IMG/VR virus record: IMGVR_UViG_2563366977_000005
Coordinates: 1-39,611 of that record
DNA from: a virus
Taxonomy: Duplodnaviria; Heunggongvirae; Uroviricota; Caudoviricetes
Strand: one strand, 5' to 3'
Length of the DNA stretch: 39,611 nt
A program made the translations under genes and the position numbers. Shown here piece by piece: positions 2,587-9,854 of this stretch (positions are counted from its first letter, which is position 1; each line of letters begins with the position of its first letter). Under the pieces are notes generated by a model, which was given only the letters and a program-made list of their open reading frames with translations, was not told where the DNA came from and ran no database searches.

Positions 2587-3900
2587 ATGGCTGAAAGAAT
2601 AAGGTATGTATTCCTTGCAATTTTTTGTGCATTACTGTGCAAGGAGTCAATTGACATATGGATGATGAATAATGGCGACTTCGATAGGGCCATAACACCT
2701 TTCATGAATGGGATCAGACAGTTCTCACATGATGGCACATTACTTTATACCCTGAAGGAAAATTTCAGTTCAATTGTGAACTATGAGTATAAAAGCTCAT
2801 TTAGTTATATTCTTTATTTATACGCTTATGTTATATCGATATTCACACACACATTTGATCTTAGGTTATGGTCATCTCTTTCCAAAATCGTGTATATTTG
2901 TGCGTTATATAAACTATTTGTAGAAATAAACAATAAAAAATATTCTTATCTTTTATTTCCGGTATCAGCATTATTGCTATTTACTCCTTCCATACTTTCA
3001 CAATTCACAGCATTTTATCAGGAGCAAATAGTAATCACTTTACTTCCGGTAATTACTTATATAATTCTTAAAAAAGAAATATCAAGGTTTGATAAAGTAT
3101 TACTAGTTGCATGCGCAGCGCTAATCGCCACATCAAAATCTCAGTTCTTCTATATTCCCATTTTAATTTCTTTAATTTCAATAATATTTATTGACATAAG
3201 AGATAAAAAATTTCACTTAGCTATGGTAATTGCGACGATAATTGCATTGTCATTTTCATTTTTCTCGCCAAGCGCAACTAAAAATAACAGCTATCACTCC
3301 CTTTATTTCGGGACTTTGCTATACAATAAAAGCAATGGAAAAGAAAATCCATCGTGGGCCGTGGACGAATGCATTGGTGTTGATGCATGGGGAAATAAAT
3401 TTGATTTGGATAAGGGAGCTGTTACCACAAAAGATGCTGGAGCCTGCTTCGCAAAAAATAAAGAAAGGGGATTGAAGGATTCTTTGCTTTTGATGCTAAA
3501 GCAACCTTCCATGTTCCTCCTTCTTCCTTTTGATTCTGGAGTTCGAACCCAATTAACTGAAGATTACTTCCATGTCTTCAAGGAAAATAAGCTAATAATA
3601 AGTAAGAGTGTTTTTTTGAATGAAGTTCAAAAAATAAAAGACTCTGCTCTATCAACTGTGAGGATTCCTGTTGCATTTATAGCCATGATAGCATCACTGA
3701 TTTTTATCCGAAAAAAATATTCTGTTGCAATCTTTACATTATCTGCTTTTAGCATCTCTCAGTTTTATATTAGCTTCATTGGCGAAGGATATAGAGATTT
3801 AGACAAGCATCTTTTTGCAATGAACTTTTCATTTGACCTAATGATATTTATAGTACTATCAATTATATTGGATAAGGTAGCATCAGGAATTTATAAGTAA
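2587..3900 (+). CDS. Serotype-specific O-antigen glucosyltransferase (GtrC-type polytopic membrane protein), 437 aa
   Basis: Third gene of the gtr operon; very AT-rich, many hydrophobic segments; no family recognised by eye, so specificity is unknown. Confidence 0.6.
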   Translation: MAERIRYVFLAIFCALLCKESIDIWMMNNGDFDRAITPFMNGIRQFSHDGTLLYTLKENFSSIVNYEYKSSFSYILYLYAYVISIFTHTFDLRLWSSLSKIVYICALYKLFVEINNKKYSYLLFPVSALLLFTPSILSQFTAFYQEQIVITLLPVITYIILKKEISRFDKVLLVACAALIATSKSQFFYIPILISLISIIFIDIRDKKFHLAMVIATIIALSFSFFSPSATKNNSYHSLYFGTLLYNKSNGKENPSWAVDECIGVDAWGNKFDLDKGAVTTKDAGACFAKNKERGLKDSLLLMLKQPSMFLLLPFDSGVRTQLTEDYFHVFKENKLIISKSVFLNEVQKIKDSALSTVRIPVAFIAMIASLIFIRKKYSVAIFTLSAFSISQFYISFIGEGYRDLDKHLFAMNFSFDLMIFIVLSIILDKVASGIYK

Positions 3901-3904
3901 ACAT

Positions 3905-3937
3905 CCCCCCCACAGTTATCCTGGGGGGGGGATTTTA
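3905..3937. terminator. Bidirectional intrinsic terminator between convergent gtrC and tailspike
   Basis: C7 run, 11-nt loop, G9 run, then a T-tract on the + strand; sits between the two stop codons. Confidence 0.6.
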
Positions 3938-5980
3938 TGTAGCGTTAAATCTTGCTCTATAGTCTTTTCCTAATGCTATGAAATCTATGTCAGTGGGAGC
4001 GCCTGCAGTATTGTACATCCTTACAACGAATGAGTTTGCGGTAGGATAACCACCTATTATTCCGTATCCTGGTACCCCTACAGTAGTTATTTCTACAGCC
4101 ACGTTTGCTATATCATGATTTGCATTTACTGTATAAACCCCAGTCGCTCCCCTTGTAACACTGAGTATATTTCTCCTGTTTCCCATTGCTCCAGTCGCAC
4201 CAACAACGCTCACACCAAAAGCGAAGTCAGGAGAGCTTTTCCATTTAACAGTAGCATCCACAACCGGTGATTGTGATGGGATCCATAAGTTATCATAATC
4301 GATAAAAATAGCCTGCTCATTGGCGGAATATCCACTTATACTAACATCTGGCCTCGATGCGCTTGCCGTATAGCCAACCCCAAGGCAGGTATTACCACGC
4401 ATCTCCAGAGTCATAGTTACCCCTGACGGGTAACTATAATTACCACCCAGAACTATTACTTGGCTAACAGGATACTGCGTATCGTTATTGTTGAAGTTAC
4501 TATTTGAAATAACATGCTTGATAGAGCGGTTGTTGCTATGGGTTATGTAGAACGGGTATCCACTAACAGTTTCCACATACAACCCATCTACTACTAACCC
4601 GACGGTGCCGTCAGAACCTCCACCCTGCACGTAGAACCCACGGAATGTAGTGTCCCCCGGAGAACCACACCCTTCAATGCTACCGCCATCAATTTGGAAT
4701 TGTGTAGCGTTAACTATCCATAAACCCTGGTTTTCCATAGTAAGAATCTGTGGGCGAATGAATCTGTTAGCGTTAGGGTTGGCATAACCAGAACCAACCG
4801 TTCCCCCTGCCTCAAACTTCGCCCCACGATAGCCACTAAACCAGCACGGCTCAATCCATGTGCATGACAGTACGCTTTGCGCAAGAAGTTGTTGGTATCC
4901 CCCCGCCCATTTGACACGCTCAATTACTGCCCCTGTCAGGCGGCCCAACTTCATTAAATAGCCAGTTTTGGTAAGGCCTTTCTCTCGAATCTGGAAGTCT
5001 TTCATACCCCAAGTTTGGGTAAAACTATCCAACATGCACGTGATGTTATATGTATCAGTACCCAACGGGGTGCATATAAAGTAACTGCTGTTTATGCCGT
5101 ATCCTTCAATCCGCGGCATGGCTGACGTATTGTCAAAAAAAGCTGGCATACTCACAGCTTTTTCTAAGTGGATAAACCCATACCCAAGCTGAACATGTTT
5201 ACCTAAGGCTGCCGCTGCATTGAAGACATTTTGTAATGCATCACTATGCGCGGATGAAGATGTGGATGTTGATCCATCTCCAATACCAGCCCAATCAGTA
5301 TGAATATGTGTGGCATCACCAATATCTCTCACCCACACGCCACTCCCGGTAGGATCAGTTTCACCCTGACCAGTAACATATGATGAAAGATTTGTGCTGT
5401 AAGGCACGGTCGGGCTGAAGTATATGCAGCCGTCATGCTTAGCTTTCGGAACATTAGCCTGGAAGATAAACTCACCACCACCTTTTGGCTTTCCATATGT
5501 AGTTACACTCCAACCAGCATACCAACTACGTAGTTTTACACGAGCGCCGTCGTTTTTAACAAGACCAAAGAAGTCAGCAGCTGATTGCAACTCCCCTATG
5601 TACGAATAACCTTCCTTGCCAGCCAATAATTGCATTAATGCTTCAGGATCATACCTTACCACATTGTCAAAATAATATTCCTGAGAACCATAAGAGTCGT
5701 AAACAGCAAGACTATATTGTTCATCTGTAATTATTTTATTTATTATTTGACCATTATAAACAGGATGACCACCGGAGTTTATAACAATCGGTTGTGGAAT
5801 CTGTATCTTATTTCCACTCTCATTAACGATATATACTGGAACCTGATTTTCAGGATATACAGGGTCTGTGTCAGGAATACCTACATATATTTTACCATTT
5901 GAAATAGCTTTGAATGAACGCGATGCTGTGTACAGACTCATTGGCATATTTACAAGAATTGACTGTGACGTCTCTGACAT
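3935..5980 (-). CDS. Tailspike protein (681 aa) with P22 gp9-like N-terminal head-binding domain
   Basis: First ~110 aa (SRSFKAISNGKIYVG...PVYNGQ...YDP) align with the recalled P22 tailspike N-terminus; remainder divergent (receptor-binding part). Confidence 0.85.
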   Translation of the reverse strand: MSETSQSILVNMPMSLYTASRSFKAISNGKIYVGIPDTDPVYPENQVPVYIVNESGNKIQIPQPIVINSGGHPVYNGQIINKIITDEQYSLAVYDSYGSQEYYFDNVVRYDPEALMQLLAGKEGYSYIGELQSAADFFGLVKNDGARVKLRSWYAGWSVTTYGKPKGGGEFIFQANVPKAKHDGCIYFSPTVPYSTNLSSYVTGQGETDPTGSGVWVRDIGDATHIHTDWAGIGDGSTSTSSSAHSDALQNVFNAAAALGKHVQLGYGFIHLEKAVSMPAFFDNTSAMPRIEGYGINSSYFICTPLGTDTYNITCMLDSFTQTWGMKDFQIREKGLTKTGYLMKLGRLTGAVIERVKWAGGYQQLLAQSVLSCTWIEPCWFSGYRGAKFEAGGTVGSGYANPNANRFIRPQILTMENQGLWIVNATQFQIDGGSIEGCGSPGDTTFRGFYVQGGGSDGTVGLVVDGLYVETVSGYPFYITHSNNRSIKHVISNSNFNNNDTQYPVSQVIVLGGNYSYPSGVTMTLEMRGNTCLGVGYTASASRPDVSISGYSANEQAIFIDYDNLWIPSQSPVVDATVKWKSSPDFAFGVSVVGATGAMGNRRNILSVTRGATGVYTVNANHDIANVAVEITTVGVPGYGIIGGYPTANSFVVRMYNTAGAPTDIDFIALGKDYRARFNAT

Positions 5981-6079
5981 TTAAGGGCTCCAAATGCAAG
6001 TAATAGACTCAGCGTGGATATGATTGAGATTCATTACATACCAAAATGGTACTATTGAGTGTTTATCCAGTAGGTTACG

Positions 6080-6373
6080 ATGCCATTCCACCCAACTGGT
6101 GAGGCATCAAGGATGTACAGCAAATACGACGAGGCGCAGTTTCACTTGAGACTTCCGCATGAACTCCACGCGAAAATTAAGCAGCGTGCGAAGATGAATA
6201 ACAGGTCGCTGAACTCAGAGATAATTGCAGCGATTGAAGAATCATTGGCTAAACAAAGCTCTGCATCAGTTTACATTGACGATGCAGAGCGTATGGCAGA
6301 ACAACAATCTGATATGGTTAAGAAAATTGTCTTTGATACGCTCAAGGAGCTATATAAAAAAGACAGCAGCTAA
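6080..6373 (+). CDS. mnt: Mnt-like ribbon-helix-helix repressor (alternative start at 6113)
   Basis: FHLRLPHELHAKIKQRAKMNNRSLNSEIIAAIEE and C-terminal ...VKKIVFDTLKELYKK resemble recalled P22 Mnt; divergent from tailspike as in P22 immI. Confidence 0.7.
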   Translation: MPFHPTGEASRMYSKYDEAQFHLRLPHELHAKIKQRAKMNNRSLNSEIIAAIEESLAKQSSASVYIDDAERMAEQQSDMVKKIVFDTLKELYKKDSS

Positions 6374-6393
6374 CCATCAGTTACGGAGGATTT

Positions 6394-6471
6394 ATGCAAA
6401 GAGATATGCTGAACATTGCGTTCTACATATTTGGTTTTTGCACGTTCCTGGTGTTTGCAAAGCTATTCTGA
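6394..6471 (+). CDS. Candidate 25-aa hydrophobic peptide (MQRDMLNIAFYIFGFCTFLVFAKLF)
   Basis: GGAGGA Shine-Dalgarno 4 nt upstream of ATG, directly after mnt stop; single predicted TM helix; below the ORF-track size cutoff. Confidence 0.3.
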   Translation: MQRDMLNIAFYIFGFCTFLVFAKLF

Positions 6472-8460
6472 CAACGCATCAGACTTAGCCCCCTGCGTCA
6501 GAGCGTTAATTGCCTTTTGTGCCTGCTGCATTGCTTTCTCAAAGGCTGTTGATCCGCGTGGGGTGTTTGCCATTCGGAGCATTGCATTTCTGAATGGTTC
6601 GCTCTCATAGGCGCGAGTAAGAAGTCCGTAGCTTACCGCTGCGCCAGTTGTCGCCGGGTTCATTGCCGTCCCATACCCGATAATGAACGGGATGGTTTGC
6701 TGCCCTGTTGGTGTTGTTACTGCCGCTTTTGCAGCCTGCTGCGTGGATTGCAGGTAGTTTTTCAATCCTTTCAGATAAGCGGCTTCCTGACCTTTAAATG
6801 TGATGCCAGTCTGGTTTTGCAGGATGTTAAGCTGCCGAAGGAACTGGTCAGGGGATCCGCCAGATTTCTCCATCGCCTTTCCAATGATGCCATTGCGCAT
6901 TTGCGCCCTGCCAACACGACCAACTGAGTTATACAGCGTCTTAATTTCCGATTTGTTCTTGCTGAATAGCATGTTGTTGACAACTTCCGGCGTCAGGTCG
7001 CCTTTCATGAGAACATTCTTCAGCCTGGTATTCTTTAGTTTCGCCGCTTCGTCAGCGTAGAGGGCATTGGCCTGCTGATATTTACGGAGAGTATCGTTGC
7101 CAAGATTCTGACCAATGGCACCATTGATATCGTCGGTCATTGCCTTGTAAACGCGCTGAATGGCAGCATCGGAACGGTTTGGTAACACTGGTCGCTCCCC
7201 CTTCACGTCCATTCTGAACTGGCTGCGCAGATCGCTTAATTGCTTCAAATCCAGATTTACCGGACCATCAGGACCAGCATTGCGAACAAGCTCATCACGA
7301 TAGGACTGAAGTTTTGAAATAGTCTCGTTATCAGCAACCTTACCAAGCTTCTGCAGGTTAGATATTTCTGTATCAATCTGCTGAATTGCTCTTGCAGGCT
7401 GAATGTTTATTCCAGCCATAGCATTCTGAACCTGCTCCAGTCGATTTCCTGCAGCGCGACGAATTCCTGATGTTTTCGCTTTAAGGCTGTCAATAACAAC
7501 CGCTGGATCATACTCACCGAATTTATCAGCAAATCTCTGCACCAACTGGCTTCTCGCTTCCTGTTGCGTTGCTCTCATTCCGCTTGTGCCAGCCAGAGGG
7601 ATATTTTCTGCTGTAGTCTGCGCCATTTTTCCGACGCGGGAAGTTGGTTGTAACAGGTCTGTGGTGTGCAGAGGAACTCCTTCACGCTCTGCAAATCTGA
7701 TAGCCTGCTGCGCTTCTGGCGCGATAGCACCACGAACGCCACGATAAGCAGCACCTAACCCACGTCCGGCAGCGTTAATAGCACCGCCAGTAAGTACACC
7801 AACGCCTAAATCGGTAGCGAGTGCTTCCGCATCATCTTTCGCACTATTTGCAGCAAGTGACCCGACTGCGTTTTCAGCGAGAAGGCGAGTTGCACCCTGA
7901 GCAATTCTACCAGCGAGTGTTGGTGCCTGTGTTGCCGCTCTCTCAATGCCAGCAGGAGTGAGGTAAGGCAATGCCTCAGCAAATACCCTTCCCTCTGTAG
8001 TTTGTGGAGTCAGCGCGCCTTGCTGAAGGCCAAAGTCCTGCTCTAATCCCTGCGTTGTTACTCGTGGCGCTGGGTGATATGTCCCATCGCCAATTCCGAG
8101 TTTACCGCCAGCCCAAGTCGCCGCGCTTGTTACAGCATCGGCAACTGATGCAGGTATGTTTGCCACGTTCACGCCAGCCTGCACCAGTCCGCGACCAGTC
8201 TCTTTTACTGCTTCGCCAAGATCAGACATAAATCCACTTTGCTGTGGTTGTTGCTGTGCTTCTGGTTGCGGCGTCTCCACTGGCGACACAGATGGCAATG
8301 GATAGGAAGCATAGAAAGCTTGCTTAGCCTGCTCTGCATTTTCTCCGGCTTGCGGGGCAACGACTTCATTGAAGTATTGCTCCTGAGCCTGCGCTTTTTG
8401 TTCTGGTGCTAACGCCTGATACTGTGGAGAGGCGATAACATCTTTCCATGCTTTAGCCAT
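6463..8460 (-). CDS. Ejection/injection protein, P22 gp16-like (665 aa)
   Basis: Position and size in the P22 late gene order (4-10-26-14-7-20-16); Ala/Gln-rich composition typical of ejection proteins. Confidence 0.75.
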   Translation of the reverse strand: MAKAWKDVIASPQYQALAPEQKAQAQEQYFNEVVAPQAGENAEQAKQAFYASYPLPSVSPVETPQPEAQQQPQQSGFMSDLGEAVKETGRGLVQAGVNVANIPASVADAVTSAATWAGGKLGIGDGTYHPAPRVTTQGLEQDFGLQQGALTPQTTEGRVFAEALPYLTPAGIERAATQAPTLAGRIAQGATRLLAENAVGSLAANSAKDDAEALATDLGVGVLTGGAINAAGRGLGAAYRGVRGAIAPEAQQAIRFAEREGVPLHTTDLLQPTSRVGKMAQTTAENIPLAGTSGMRATQQEARSQLVQRFADKFGEYDPAVVIDSLKAKTSGIRRAAGNRLEQVQNAMAGINIQPARAIQQIDTEISNLQKLGKVADNETISKLQSYRDELVRNAGPDGPVNLDLKQLSDLRSQFRMDVKGERPVLPNRSDAAIQRVYKAMTDDINGAIGQNLGNDTLRKYQQANALYADEAAKLKNTRLKNVLMKGDLTPEVVNNMLFSKNKSEIKTLYNSVGRVGRAQMRNGIIGKAMEKSGGSPDQFLRQLNILQNQTGITFKGQEAAYLKGLKNYLQSTQQAAKAAVTTPTGQQTIPFIIGYGTAMNPATTGAAVSYGLLTRAYESEPFRNAMLRMANTPRGSTAFEKAMQQAQKAINALTQGAKSDALSE

Positions 8461-9854
8461 TAATCACCCCATAGTGAAGAAAAGTTACTGCTGGCTGCTG
8501 GCTGTGATACCTGTGCAGGTTGAGATTGCTGCCGCTGAGATTTACCAACATTAACGTTATATTGTTGGTTGTAATTGTTGGTGTATTCCTGAATCTCACG
8601 AATCGACTGCTGCATAGCCTCCGGGCTTGAATAGTCAACCTGCGGCATCCCCTGAAAATACATCTTCGCTTCTGCAACGGTGTTAATACCACTGGCCCCC
8701 ATGTCCCTTGCTGCCGCCACACCCTGATTCTGCATTCTGCCCTGAATACGTTGTGCTGAGTTATATAACTGGCGCTGCTCTTTTCCTGTTAATCGGCTGC
8801 GAACATCAGCACCAATTGCCGGGTTACCTGCGCCGCCGGTCATTCCTGTCATGAAATCGAGAGCAGAAGCGTCTGCATTTGCGATCGCGTCGATATCCTT
8901 CTTCATGGCATAGTTTTGTGCTGATGCAGACGATGTTGCAGGCGCTGCGATTGAACTGGCAGGAACGCGAACCATATTCCCCTCGTTGTCGATGCCTTCG
9001 TAGAACGCATTAGCCCCAGCGCCGTGAAGTTTCCCGCCTACCGTTACAGTTCTGCCATCTGATAACTGAACTGTACGCTCATCATTCCCAGCGGTTCCTC
9101 TTGTTGACGCTCGCTGCATTGCCAAATCCTGACCGCGTCGCGCAGTAGAAGCAGATAAATCCTGACCGCGCATCGTGATGTTCTGACCTCGTGCTGTTAG
9201 CGCCTCGCCAGCCTGATTGCTGCGGATTGTCTCTGCCAGCCTGCCTCGGTCAATTTCACGACCAGCCATCTTGTCCTGAACATTGAAGTAATCAATCGGA
9301 CCAAGCGCAGCCATCCCAAGGTGATCAACAAACTCACCAAATCCTGAAGGATTCTGCTGATACATCTGAGCAACGTTATTAGGGTCAACACCGACGCGAG
9401 TCAGTTCCTTGGCGTTGTTTTGCAGCCATGATTGCATTGCTTCTGGAGACGATGCCGCAAGACGAGCGCCAGCCGCTAAGGTGCCGATAGAATTGCGCTG
9501 GTCTTCATCAATGAATCCCATGCCTTTACGAACGGATTCAATCTGGTCTGGATATTGAGTAGCCAACTGACGCAAAGCACCGCGATCACCAGACGCATAA
9601 GCATTAGCGTATGCCTGCTGAAATTCTTTCTGCCGCTGAGCCTGCTTTTCCTGCTGAAACACCCCCGCAATACCTGAAAGGCCTTGCAAAGCAGTCAGCC
9701 CAACATTGTTAGCGCCTGAACGCTCAATATCATTGTTCTGCCTGATAAGCTGAAGCGTATTGCCGATGTCATTTACGCTCGGAGCGTTTGAGTTTACGCC
9801 GCCGATACCAGCCAACAATCCGCCATTTGATCCTTGCCAAGTAGCCATGATCAC
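8460..9854 (-). CDS. Ejection protein, P22 gp20-like (464 aa)
   Basis: Synteny and size (P22 gp20 about 471 aa); start overlaps upstream stop. Confidence 0.75.

Follow-up and report, generated by a model that had tools for sequence, protein, structure and literature searches.

The question raised by this locus is why a reading frame of only 25 codons should be kept between an orphan mnt gene and the gene for a DNA ejection protein. The locus (positions 5981–6471) belongs to a Caudoviricetes genome, IMG/VR virus record IMGVR_UViG_2563366977_000005, and the whole stretch of 39,611 nucleotides (nt) that was analysed is termed the window here. Judging from its conservation in related prophages, the small open reading frame (ORF) is very probably a real gene, and the explanation towards which we lean as a whole is that this gene specifies a membrane peptide with which a resident prophage would exclude phages carrying the same type of ejection protein. 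An earlier note, made from the letters of the DNA, had described a GGAGGA followed by an ATG at 6394 that opens a 25-codon hydrophobic frame, and a divergent gap of 132 base pairs (bp) between the tailspike gene and an Mnt-like gene, and all of these sequence statements hold. The genes concerned are the following.

3935–5980, minus strand: tailspike gene, the last gene of the late operon, with a P22 gp9-type head-binding N-terminus (Pfam Head_binding, 5.6e-43)
6113–6373, plus strand: mnt homolog of 86 amino acids (aa) (Pfam Arc, 7.5e-15; Repressor_Mnt, 3.4e-14)
6385–6390, plus strand: Shine-Dalgarno sequence GGAGGA of the small ORF, seen in the sequence, the family motif GGAGGATTT-ATG being conserved
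6394–6471, plus strand: small ORF of 25 codons, MQRDMLNIAFYIFGFCTFLVFAKLF, with ATG at 6394 and TGA at 6469–6471 (ORF list, conservation and mapping of the Salmonella prophage BTP1)
6463–8460, minus strand: gene for a gp16-type DNA ejection (transfer) protein of the Sf6 gene 13 type (RefSeq name 'P22-gp16 family phage DNA ejection protein')

The small ORF and the gp16-type gene are convergent, with the last 9 nt of the ORF overlapping the gp16 stop (6463–6471), and the start of the ORF sits 20 nt past the mnt stop, across a spacer in which the scan found no terminator.

A 25-codon ORF alone is no evidence of a gene, because 94 ORFs of at least 20 aa overlap positions 3000–9500. Loci were picked solely by similarity of the gp16 C-terminus (80 viral contigs of the window type, 80 of the phage L type and six species-representative genomes), and an intact family member overlapping the gp16 stop was found in all 165 evaluable loci, from at least six genera. 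Conservation of the peptide frame in related prophages, which had been set beforehand as a check, is therefore observed. The loci carrying the small ORF include those of Escherichia, Shigella (Sf6), Salmonella (L, BTP1 and VSe13), Citrobacter, Kluyvera, Pseudescherichia and Candidatus (Ca.) Erwinia, and members of the peptide family read as follows.

Phage L: MNRDLLNFAFLIFGIVVGRLLFA
BTP1: MERDLLNFVFLIFGLVVGKLLFA
Ca. Erwinia dacicola: MERDWLNFAFLIFGICVGVALFT
Citrobacter: MERDLLNFALLLCGVVVGKLLFA
Kluyvera: MNRDLLNFAFLIFGICVGFALFA
Pseudescherichia: MDRDLLNFAFLIFGICVGVALFA

Family lengths are 23–25 aa, and the 25-aa peptide has a polar N-terminus, MxRDxLN, followed by a single hydrophobic helix, as is evident from its sequence. 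A degenerate DNA pattern for codons 1–14 only matched 68 viral contigs, and all 68 are open through the hydrophobic stretch, with the stop after codon 23 in 67 of them and a contig end cutting the remaining one. In the 23-aa type, variable sites at codon positions 1, 2 and 3 number 15, 8 and 40, and 34 synonymous changes were counted against 15.8 ± 3.3 expected, a number reached by none of 20,000 randomisations. The ratio of nonsynonymous to synonymous polymorphism (pN/pS) of the 25-aa type is 0.31, the lowest among the six frames. Between the consensus sequences of the two types, R3, D4, N7, A9, I12, F13 and G14 stay the same while their codons differ synonymously, and the two lengths differ by 9 nt, in frame. 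The Shine-Dalgarno sequence, its spacing and the start codon are conserved as GGAGG(A/G)TTT-ATG, and in loci with nothing else in the slot TTATAAT is also kept, 22 nt 5' of the ATG. Residues 2–8 of the 25-aa type read QRDMLNI, QRDTINL, QSGTINL or QSCTINL in the IMG/VR loci L004–L083, and residue 22 is A or E; this variable N-terminus could reflect relaxed or diversifying selection.

That the small ORF is a non-functional chance frame, carried along with the 3' end of gp16, is highly improbable, even though most ORFs of 20–30 codons are noise and the probability of finding no stop within the 25-aa type is 0.33. Start, Shine-Dalgarno sequence and frame are kept across genera between which protein identity of the gp16 C-termini is only about 76%, the indels are in frame, and the third-position excess is strong, which brings this alternative close to refutation. 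The idea of a structured RNA or terminator at the ORF was dropped, because folding of the region was no better than that of shuffled sequences on either strand (z −0.69 and −0.55), and there was no Rfam match. As predicted from its sequence, the ORF would be translated into a product located in the membrane.

The small ORF travels with gp16 and not with mnt. Phage Sf6 lacks mnt, its homology to the window starts exactly at 6393 (megablast), and its small ORF, MQRDLLNIAFYIVGFCTFLVFAKLF, lies in the gap between genes 13 and 14, which has been described as without any moron (PMC2629481). Phage Sf101, on the other hand, has an mnt module that is 97.7% identical, with the match ending at 6381 (megablast), a different gene-16 type and no small ORF. 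At least three unrelated upstream contexts occur among 84 loci, namely the mnt stop, the stop of a gene for a 161-aa lipoprotein, and Sf6-type intergenic sequence, and all of them join just before the ATG of the small ORF. All 81 loci with the 25-aa peptide type have the gp16 segment IIGYGTAMNPATTGAAVS, the window copy being at 6646–6684. The ORF as an appendage of mnt, the association that its place directly after that gene had suggested in the earlier note, is thus rejected, given Sf6 with the ORF and no mnt, Sf101 with mnt and no ORF, and the several upstream contexts; the ORF instead goes with the 3' end of gp16. A remnant of sieA or of the neighbouring lipoprotein gene was likewise rejected, the ORF being a separate frame with its own start in every context.

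The lipoprotein gene itself is found between mnt and the small ORF in some relatives (L084 2918–3403, E. coli MB07011; L099 995–1480, Salmonella phage VSe13), and its 161-aa product has a signal peptide with a lipobox and belongs to phrog_6067, of unknown function. It is a candidate for further lysogen-expressed cargo in the slot, as an exclusion or surface factor. In one IMG/VR contig (L203, 3300014589_000009) the gp16 stop is lost and the protein is about 10 residues longer (…EALSEKGDANTNAED), so that more of the gp16 gene is antisense to the small ORF.

The peptide is absent from current annotation. Neither Pfam nor PHROGs holds a family for it, the one match, of a 23-aa member to phrog_26923 (E = 0.041), being no better than chance, and an exact look-up of ten family members in a collection of 15 billion predicted proteins found none of them. 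The small ORF is unannotated in the records of Sf6, L, BTP1, IME10 and VSe13. The region is present in 325 of 5426 complete E. coli genomes (about 6%), and among the matches listed, gp16 is the sole gene that RefSeq annotates there. Length cut-offs (over 60 aa in the STnc6030 study discussed below, about 30 aa for programs that call genes) keep functional prophage genes out of sight, and, if the gene is real, it would be a conserved addition to the maps of long-studied phages, including the Sf6 gap that was once called moron-free (PMC2629481).

A possible function comes from BTP1, for which Owen et al. (2020, PMC7067206) reported a 786-nt antisense RNA, STnc6030, that excludes BTP1, with RNA-seq and a Northern blot as evidence of the transcript. 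The supplementary coordinates and cloning primers of that paper were placed on the BTP1 record, and are given here as D23580 positions, with positions in our BTP1 locus (L168) in brackets.

402294–404261: STMMW_03891, the gp16 homolog
403942–404727 (L168 1965–2750): STnc6030
404321 to 404250 (L168 2371–2442): BTP1 small ORF
404417–406402: BTP1 tailspike gene

The BTP1 small ORF lies wholly inside STnc6030 and inside the pPL-STnc6030 clone, native Shine-Dalgarno sequence included. The window ORF is homologous to it, the peptides being only about 40% identical, and the window has homologous DNA with the same convergent geometry as the STnc6030 locus, including the small ORF with its Shine-Dalgarno sequence. 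The clone gave total immunity to infecting BTP1 and none to P22, and left the titre of spontaneously induced BTP1 unchanged (PMC7067206). Four escape single-nucleotide polymorphisms (SNPs) at 404041–404078 all alter the STMMW_03891 protein (PMC7067206), and in the lysogen STnc6030 stands at 28–178 transcripts per million versus 3–16 for the sense gp16 gene (PMC7067206 supplement). Coding was ruled out by the authors only since no ORF exceeded 60 aa, and how the prophage evades its own RNA was left unexplained and stated as a paradox (PMC7067206). The escape cluster maps to residues 583–595 of BTP1 gp16, ILGIGTVTNPALV, and its equivalent in the window is the following.

6646–6684, minus strand: gp16 residues 593–605 (IIGYGTAMNPATT), equivalent of BTP1 gp16 583–595, from gp16 alignment and translation

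When the gp16 C-termini are aligned, P546S, a mutation with which P22 escapes its superinfection exclusion protein SieA, falls inside the escape segment, and a second one, G532W, about 9 residues upstream of it (mutations from PMC10883804).

As published, STnc6030 acts as an antisense RNA, complementary to the gp16 3' end and the tailspike 5' end, that destabilises the late mRNA of the infecting phage, and the ORF would then be incidental or would stabilise the RNA by ribosome loading. Detection by RNA-seq and Northern blot, exclusion of BTP1 by the cloned region and the position of the escape SNPs in the complementary region all agree with this (PMC7067206), as does the convergent geometry that the window shares. 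For the small ORF we nevertheless consider this mechanism unlikely, as the substitutions are of the protein type, the Shine-Dalgarno sequence and ATG are conserved where the other strand imposes no coding constraint, and no significant RNA structure was seen. The sparing of the induced prophage stays unexplained, which is the authors' own paradox (PMC7067206), a single mismatch among hundreds of paired bases would hardly abolish pairing, and every escape change alters gp16 where a SieA-escape mutation aligns. Blocking of incoming virions, sparing of the induced prophage and escape through missense changes in gp16 together fit a membrane protein that blocks injection, and are awkward for an antisense RNA. 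The abundant STnc6030 species on the Northern blot is about 480–500 nt and not 786 nt (PMC7067206); if it starts at the annotated 5' end, it would stop just past the small ORF and miss the escape region, which would weaken an antisense 'seed' model. Reviews cite STnc6030 as the example of RNA-mediated exclusion (PMC12197685), and one from 2025 still gives it as an antisense RNA; among the papers searched, none re-reads this exclusion as a peptide effect.

In the explanation that we favour, a small gene on the strand opposite the late operon would encode a 25-residue, single-helix inner-membrane peptide made by the prophage, belonging to a family of 23–25-aa peptides whose genes always run towards the Sf6/L/BTP1-type ejection gene and overlap its stop codon. 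Where the slot is otherwise empty, the ORF has a conserved upstream region of its own (TTATAAT, then GGAGGATTT). In the window, the mnt module appears to have been inserted up to the Shine-Dalgarno sequence of the ORF, replacing this native region, and the ORF would for that reason now lie so close behind mnt with no terminator between them. Mnt and the peptide probably form a two-gene lysogenic operon, running against the late operon and autoregulated by Mnt at 6039–6051. From the inner membrane of the lysogen, the peptide may stop virions of the same gp16 type from completing DNA delivery (superinfection exclusion), with the glycine-rich C-terminal segment of gp16 as its putative target, and it would be a miniature functional counterpart of SieA.

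That exclusion is brought about by the peptide acting on gp16, and not by the RNA, appears to us about as likely as not. Slightly more tentative is the broader proposal that a peptide of 23–25 residues is the real effector of the exclusion attributed to STnc6030, with a matched blocker for each gp16 type (SieA for the P22 type, the peptide for the Sf6/L/BTP1 type) that may jam gp16 in the DNA-delivery conduit. A lysogen-expressed membrane peptide with an exclusion role, as the earlier note had suggested, is supported as plausible by the conservation of the ORF and by the BTP1 clone. If true, the peptide would be the smallest known exclusion protein, overlooked in Sf6, L, ST64T and BTP1; the published mechanism would be corrected, and the paradox of a prophage immune to its own factor resolved. 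A tool of 23–25 residues would also be at hand to probe how gp16 and gp20 pass DNA across the inner membrane.

Several observations weigh against an exclusion peptide. The 25-aa type of the window is under weak purifying selection (15 synonymous changes versus 10.8 expected, P = 0.10), and these peptides vary much at residues 2–8 and 22, against a gp16 segment that shows no variation across 81 loci. Physical linkage by itself would make the types of peptide and of gp16 occur together, missense changes in four of four escape SNPs are not statistically unusual, and the escape cluster lies in the transcribed region, so the antisense model also fits. The region in which BTP1 STnc6030 starts, inside the tailspike gene, is not conserved in the window, and the scan of the window found no consensus promoter for the small ORF or for mnt. 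Phage L, finally, carries the small ORF, and its genome has no known exclusion genes (sieA, sieB), self-type exclusion not being addressed in that paper (PMC8022706).

A small membrane protein with some other role, such as modulating a membrane protein of the lysogenic host or acting as a type I toxin-like peptide that convergent late transcription restrains, is in our view quite unlikely. Its size, single helix and antisense position do resemble those of type I toxins and regulatory small proteins, and the gene is conserved. The strict link of the peptide to a single gp16 type nevertheless points phage-ward, as does the exclusion seen with this region, and promoter and terminator scans and Rfam revealed neither an antitoxin nor a small antisense RNA dedicated to it. 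Lawns on which plaques could be assayed were moreover still obtained when the BTP1 region was expressed constitutively from PLlacO-1, and this speaks against strong toxicity (PMC7067206).

With regard to mnt itself, the mechanically called ORF spans 6080–6373, and a start at 6113 (MYSKYDE...) agrees with the N-terminus of P22 Mnt and with the RefSeq call. The product has the ribbon-helix-helix N-terminal (Arc-like) domain (Pfam PF03869, 7.5e-15, residues 7–49) and the Mnt C-terminal tetramerisation domain (Pfam PF11423, 3.4e-14, residues 57–82), and is 49% identical to P22 Mnt over 80 aa (E = 1e-30). Searches for its P22 partners covered all 39.6 kb of the window, and tblastn found no homologs of Arc, Ant, SieA or orf59a there (Arc and Ant gave chance-level matches only), so that Mnt is truly an orphan, and the description of an Mnt-like gene without arc, ant and sieA is borne out. 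At the beta-strand positions that contact DNA, the window Mnt has Q/H/R versus H6/N8/R10 in P22, and, from what is known of Mnt, a different operator is expected because the contact residues differ. The gap between mnt and the tailspike gene contains the following.

5981–6112, no strand: divergent gap of 132 bp from the tailspike gene to mnt, from the sequence
6039–6051, no strand: operator-like dyad TACCA-AAA-TGGTA, TACCAaaaTGGTA, a candidate Mnt site in the P22 register
6055–6081, plus strand: candidate Pmnt, TTGAGT, 15-nt spacer, TACGAT, aligned to the annotated P22 promoter and below the threshold of the consensus scan

This gap is composite, with 5981–6032 belonging to the tailspike module and 6033–6112 to the mnt module (homology to IME10 and Sf101 starts at 6033). 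The P22 Mnt operator, AGGTCCACCGTGGACCT in the P22 record, is not present as an exact sequence in the 132-bp gap, which agrees with the earlier note; yet the gap is not without an operator-like element. In P22 the operator is directly followed by ATTGAG, the −35 element of Pmnt, and the window has the same ATTGAG, with the dyad contained in the 17 bases 5' of it, its centre exactly in the P22 register and the core CCA-N3-TGG common to both. Among 64 related mnt modules the dyad is TACCG-AAA-TGGTA in the majority, TACCA-AAA-TGGTA as in the window, or TACCG-AAA-CGGTA, which is fully symmetric. The dyad at 6039–6051 is thus put forward as a candidate binding site for the Mnt of the window.

Promoter statements for the window are made by alignment to P22 alone. 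Pmnt of P22 is TTGAGA-17-TATCAT, for which TTGAGT-15-TACGAT is the positional counterpart in the window, and the position equivalent to Pant is degenerate (ATGGCA-15-TAAACA). A consensus promoter scan of both strands of the gap passed nothing, promoter and terminator scans gave nothing convincing for Pmnt, a Pant-like promoter or the small ORF, and Rfam returned a FourU match at 6016–6086 at chance level only (20.5 bits versus a gathering score of 60). The earlier suggestion that a promoter under Mnt control reads from the gap into the tailspike gene is hence not supported, since the Pant position is decayed and the scan found nothing of consensus grade on either strand.

It may still be that Mnt matters more than the peptide, either by repressing a promoter into the tailspike gene or by protecting against the antirepressors of superinfecting phages with a matching operator. 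Both domains are intact, the in-register dyad is kept in symmetric variants, and the P22 region influences transcription into gene 9 (PMC2629481). We regard this as somewhat unlikely, as the hexamers at the Pant position have decayed, the promoter scan passed nothing in the gap that faces the tailspike gene, no ant gene was found in the window by tblastn, and the authors of the phage L genome see such mnt genes as possible remnants or as repurposed (PMC8022706). The stretch from gene 16 to the tailspike gene of P22-like phages is known as the hyper-variable "ant moron", with mnt and one unknown gene in ST64T, ST104 and Para1 (PMC2629481), and the mnt-only arrangement also occurs in phage L (PMC8022706). 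The orphan mnt is an arrangement already known, and the in-register operator candidate is newly noted.

Three further features lie around these genes, the first of them within the gp16-type gene.

6739–6763, plus strand: weak terminator-like hairpin with a T run (one site in the scan versus 1.1 expected by chance)

This hairpin, antisense to gp16, precedes by about 20 nt the place that corresponds to the annotated 3' end of STnc6030. A transcript of mnt and the small ORF may end here, but this is only a pointer, since the number of sites equals that expected by chance. In relatives, the late-mRNA strand has a 9-bp hairpin in the interval from the small ORF to the ribosome-binding site of the tailspike gene (L168, BTP1, 2276–2370, with arms GCUGCGCAAG...CUUGUGCGGC; L001, Sf6, 1407–1500, with arms CCGGACAGG...CUUGUCCGG). 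Its many G.U pairs make it specific to the late strand, and compensatory changes are seen at two pairs, in 6 and 5 of 21 sequences. It was seen in loci with an otherwise empty slot and is missing from the window; it could serve tailspike expression as an element for processing, stability or pausing. On the far side of the tailspike gene, 2587–3900 (plus strand) of the window encodes a 437-aa polytopic membrane protein, adjoining and divergent from the tailspike 3' end, with weak matches to DUF2142 and GT87. P22 and BTP1 have their gtr genes at this position, and the protein is probably a serotype-converting enzyme that modifies the O-antigen.

Type I toxins such as Ibs, ShoB and TisB, and regulatory small membrane proteins, are of similar size to the peptide, have a single hydrophobic helix and are antisense to another transcript. 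Type I toxins have a dedicated antisense antitoxin, however, and none was found for the peptide by promoter and terminator scans or in Rfam; unlike these toxins, the peptide family is also strictly linked to a phage ejection gene. The immI region of P22 resembles the window in having a two-domain Mnt whose gene lies between the tailspike gene and gene 16 and is read against the direction of late transcription. It differs in possessing arc, ant and sar, which the window is without, and in its operator sequence, while the outward promoter is decayed in the window.

Position and homology make the STnc6030 locus and that of the window one and the same, lying across the gp16–tailspike gap on the strand opposite the late operon. 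STnc6030 was described as non-coding, whereas the BTP1 member of the peptide family lies inside both the transcript and the excluding clone. It starts inside the BTP1 tailspike gene, whereas the window has mnt upstream of the small ORF, and the gp16 target segment differs between BTP1 and the window. Exclusion is known only for the cloned BTP1 region that holds the homologous ORF (PMC7067206).

SieA of P22, with about 164 aa and several transmembrane helices, is far larger than a peptide of 25 aa with one helix; its motif FxRYPxEAxxFNK is absent from the peptide, and no SieA similarity was found in the window. SieA also excludes phages with the ejection proteins of Sf6, L and CUS-3, whereas the exclusion by STnc6030 spared P22. 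By location the small ORF sits where members of the SieA family are expected (PMC10883804), and by sequence it has no homology to SieA of types A–C. SieA is nevertheless expressed from a prophage, embedded in the membrane and directed specifically at P22-like phages (Leavitt et al., 2024, PMC10883804), it occupies the same slot in the same orientation, between genes 16 and 9 and convergent with gene 16 at 22 nt from its stop, and the mutations that escape it lie in the C-terminal region of gp16 that aligns with the STnc6030 escape cluster.

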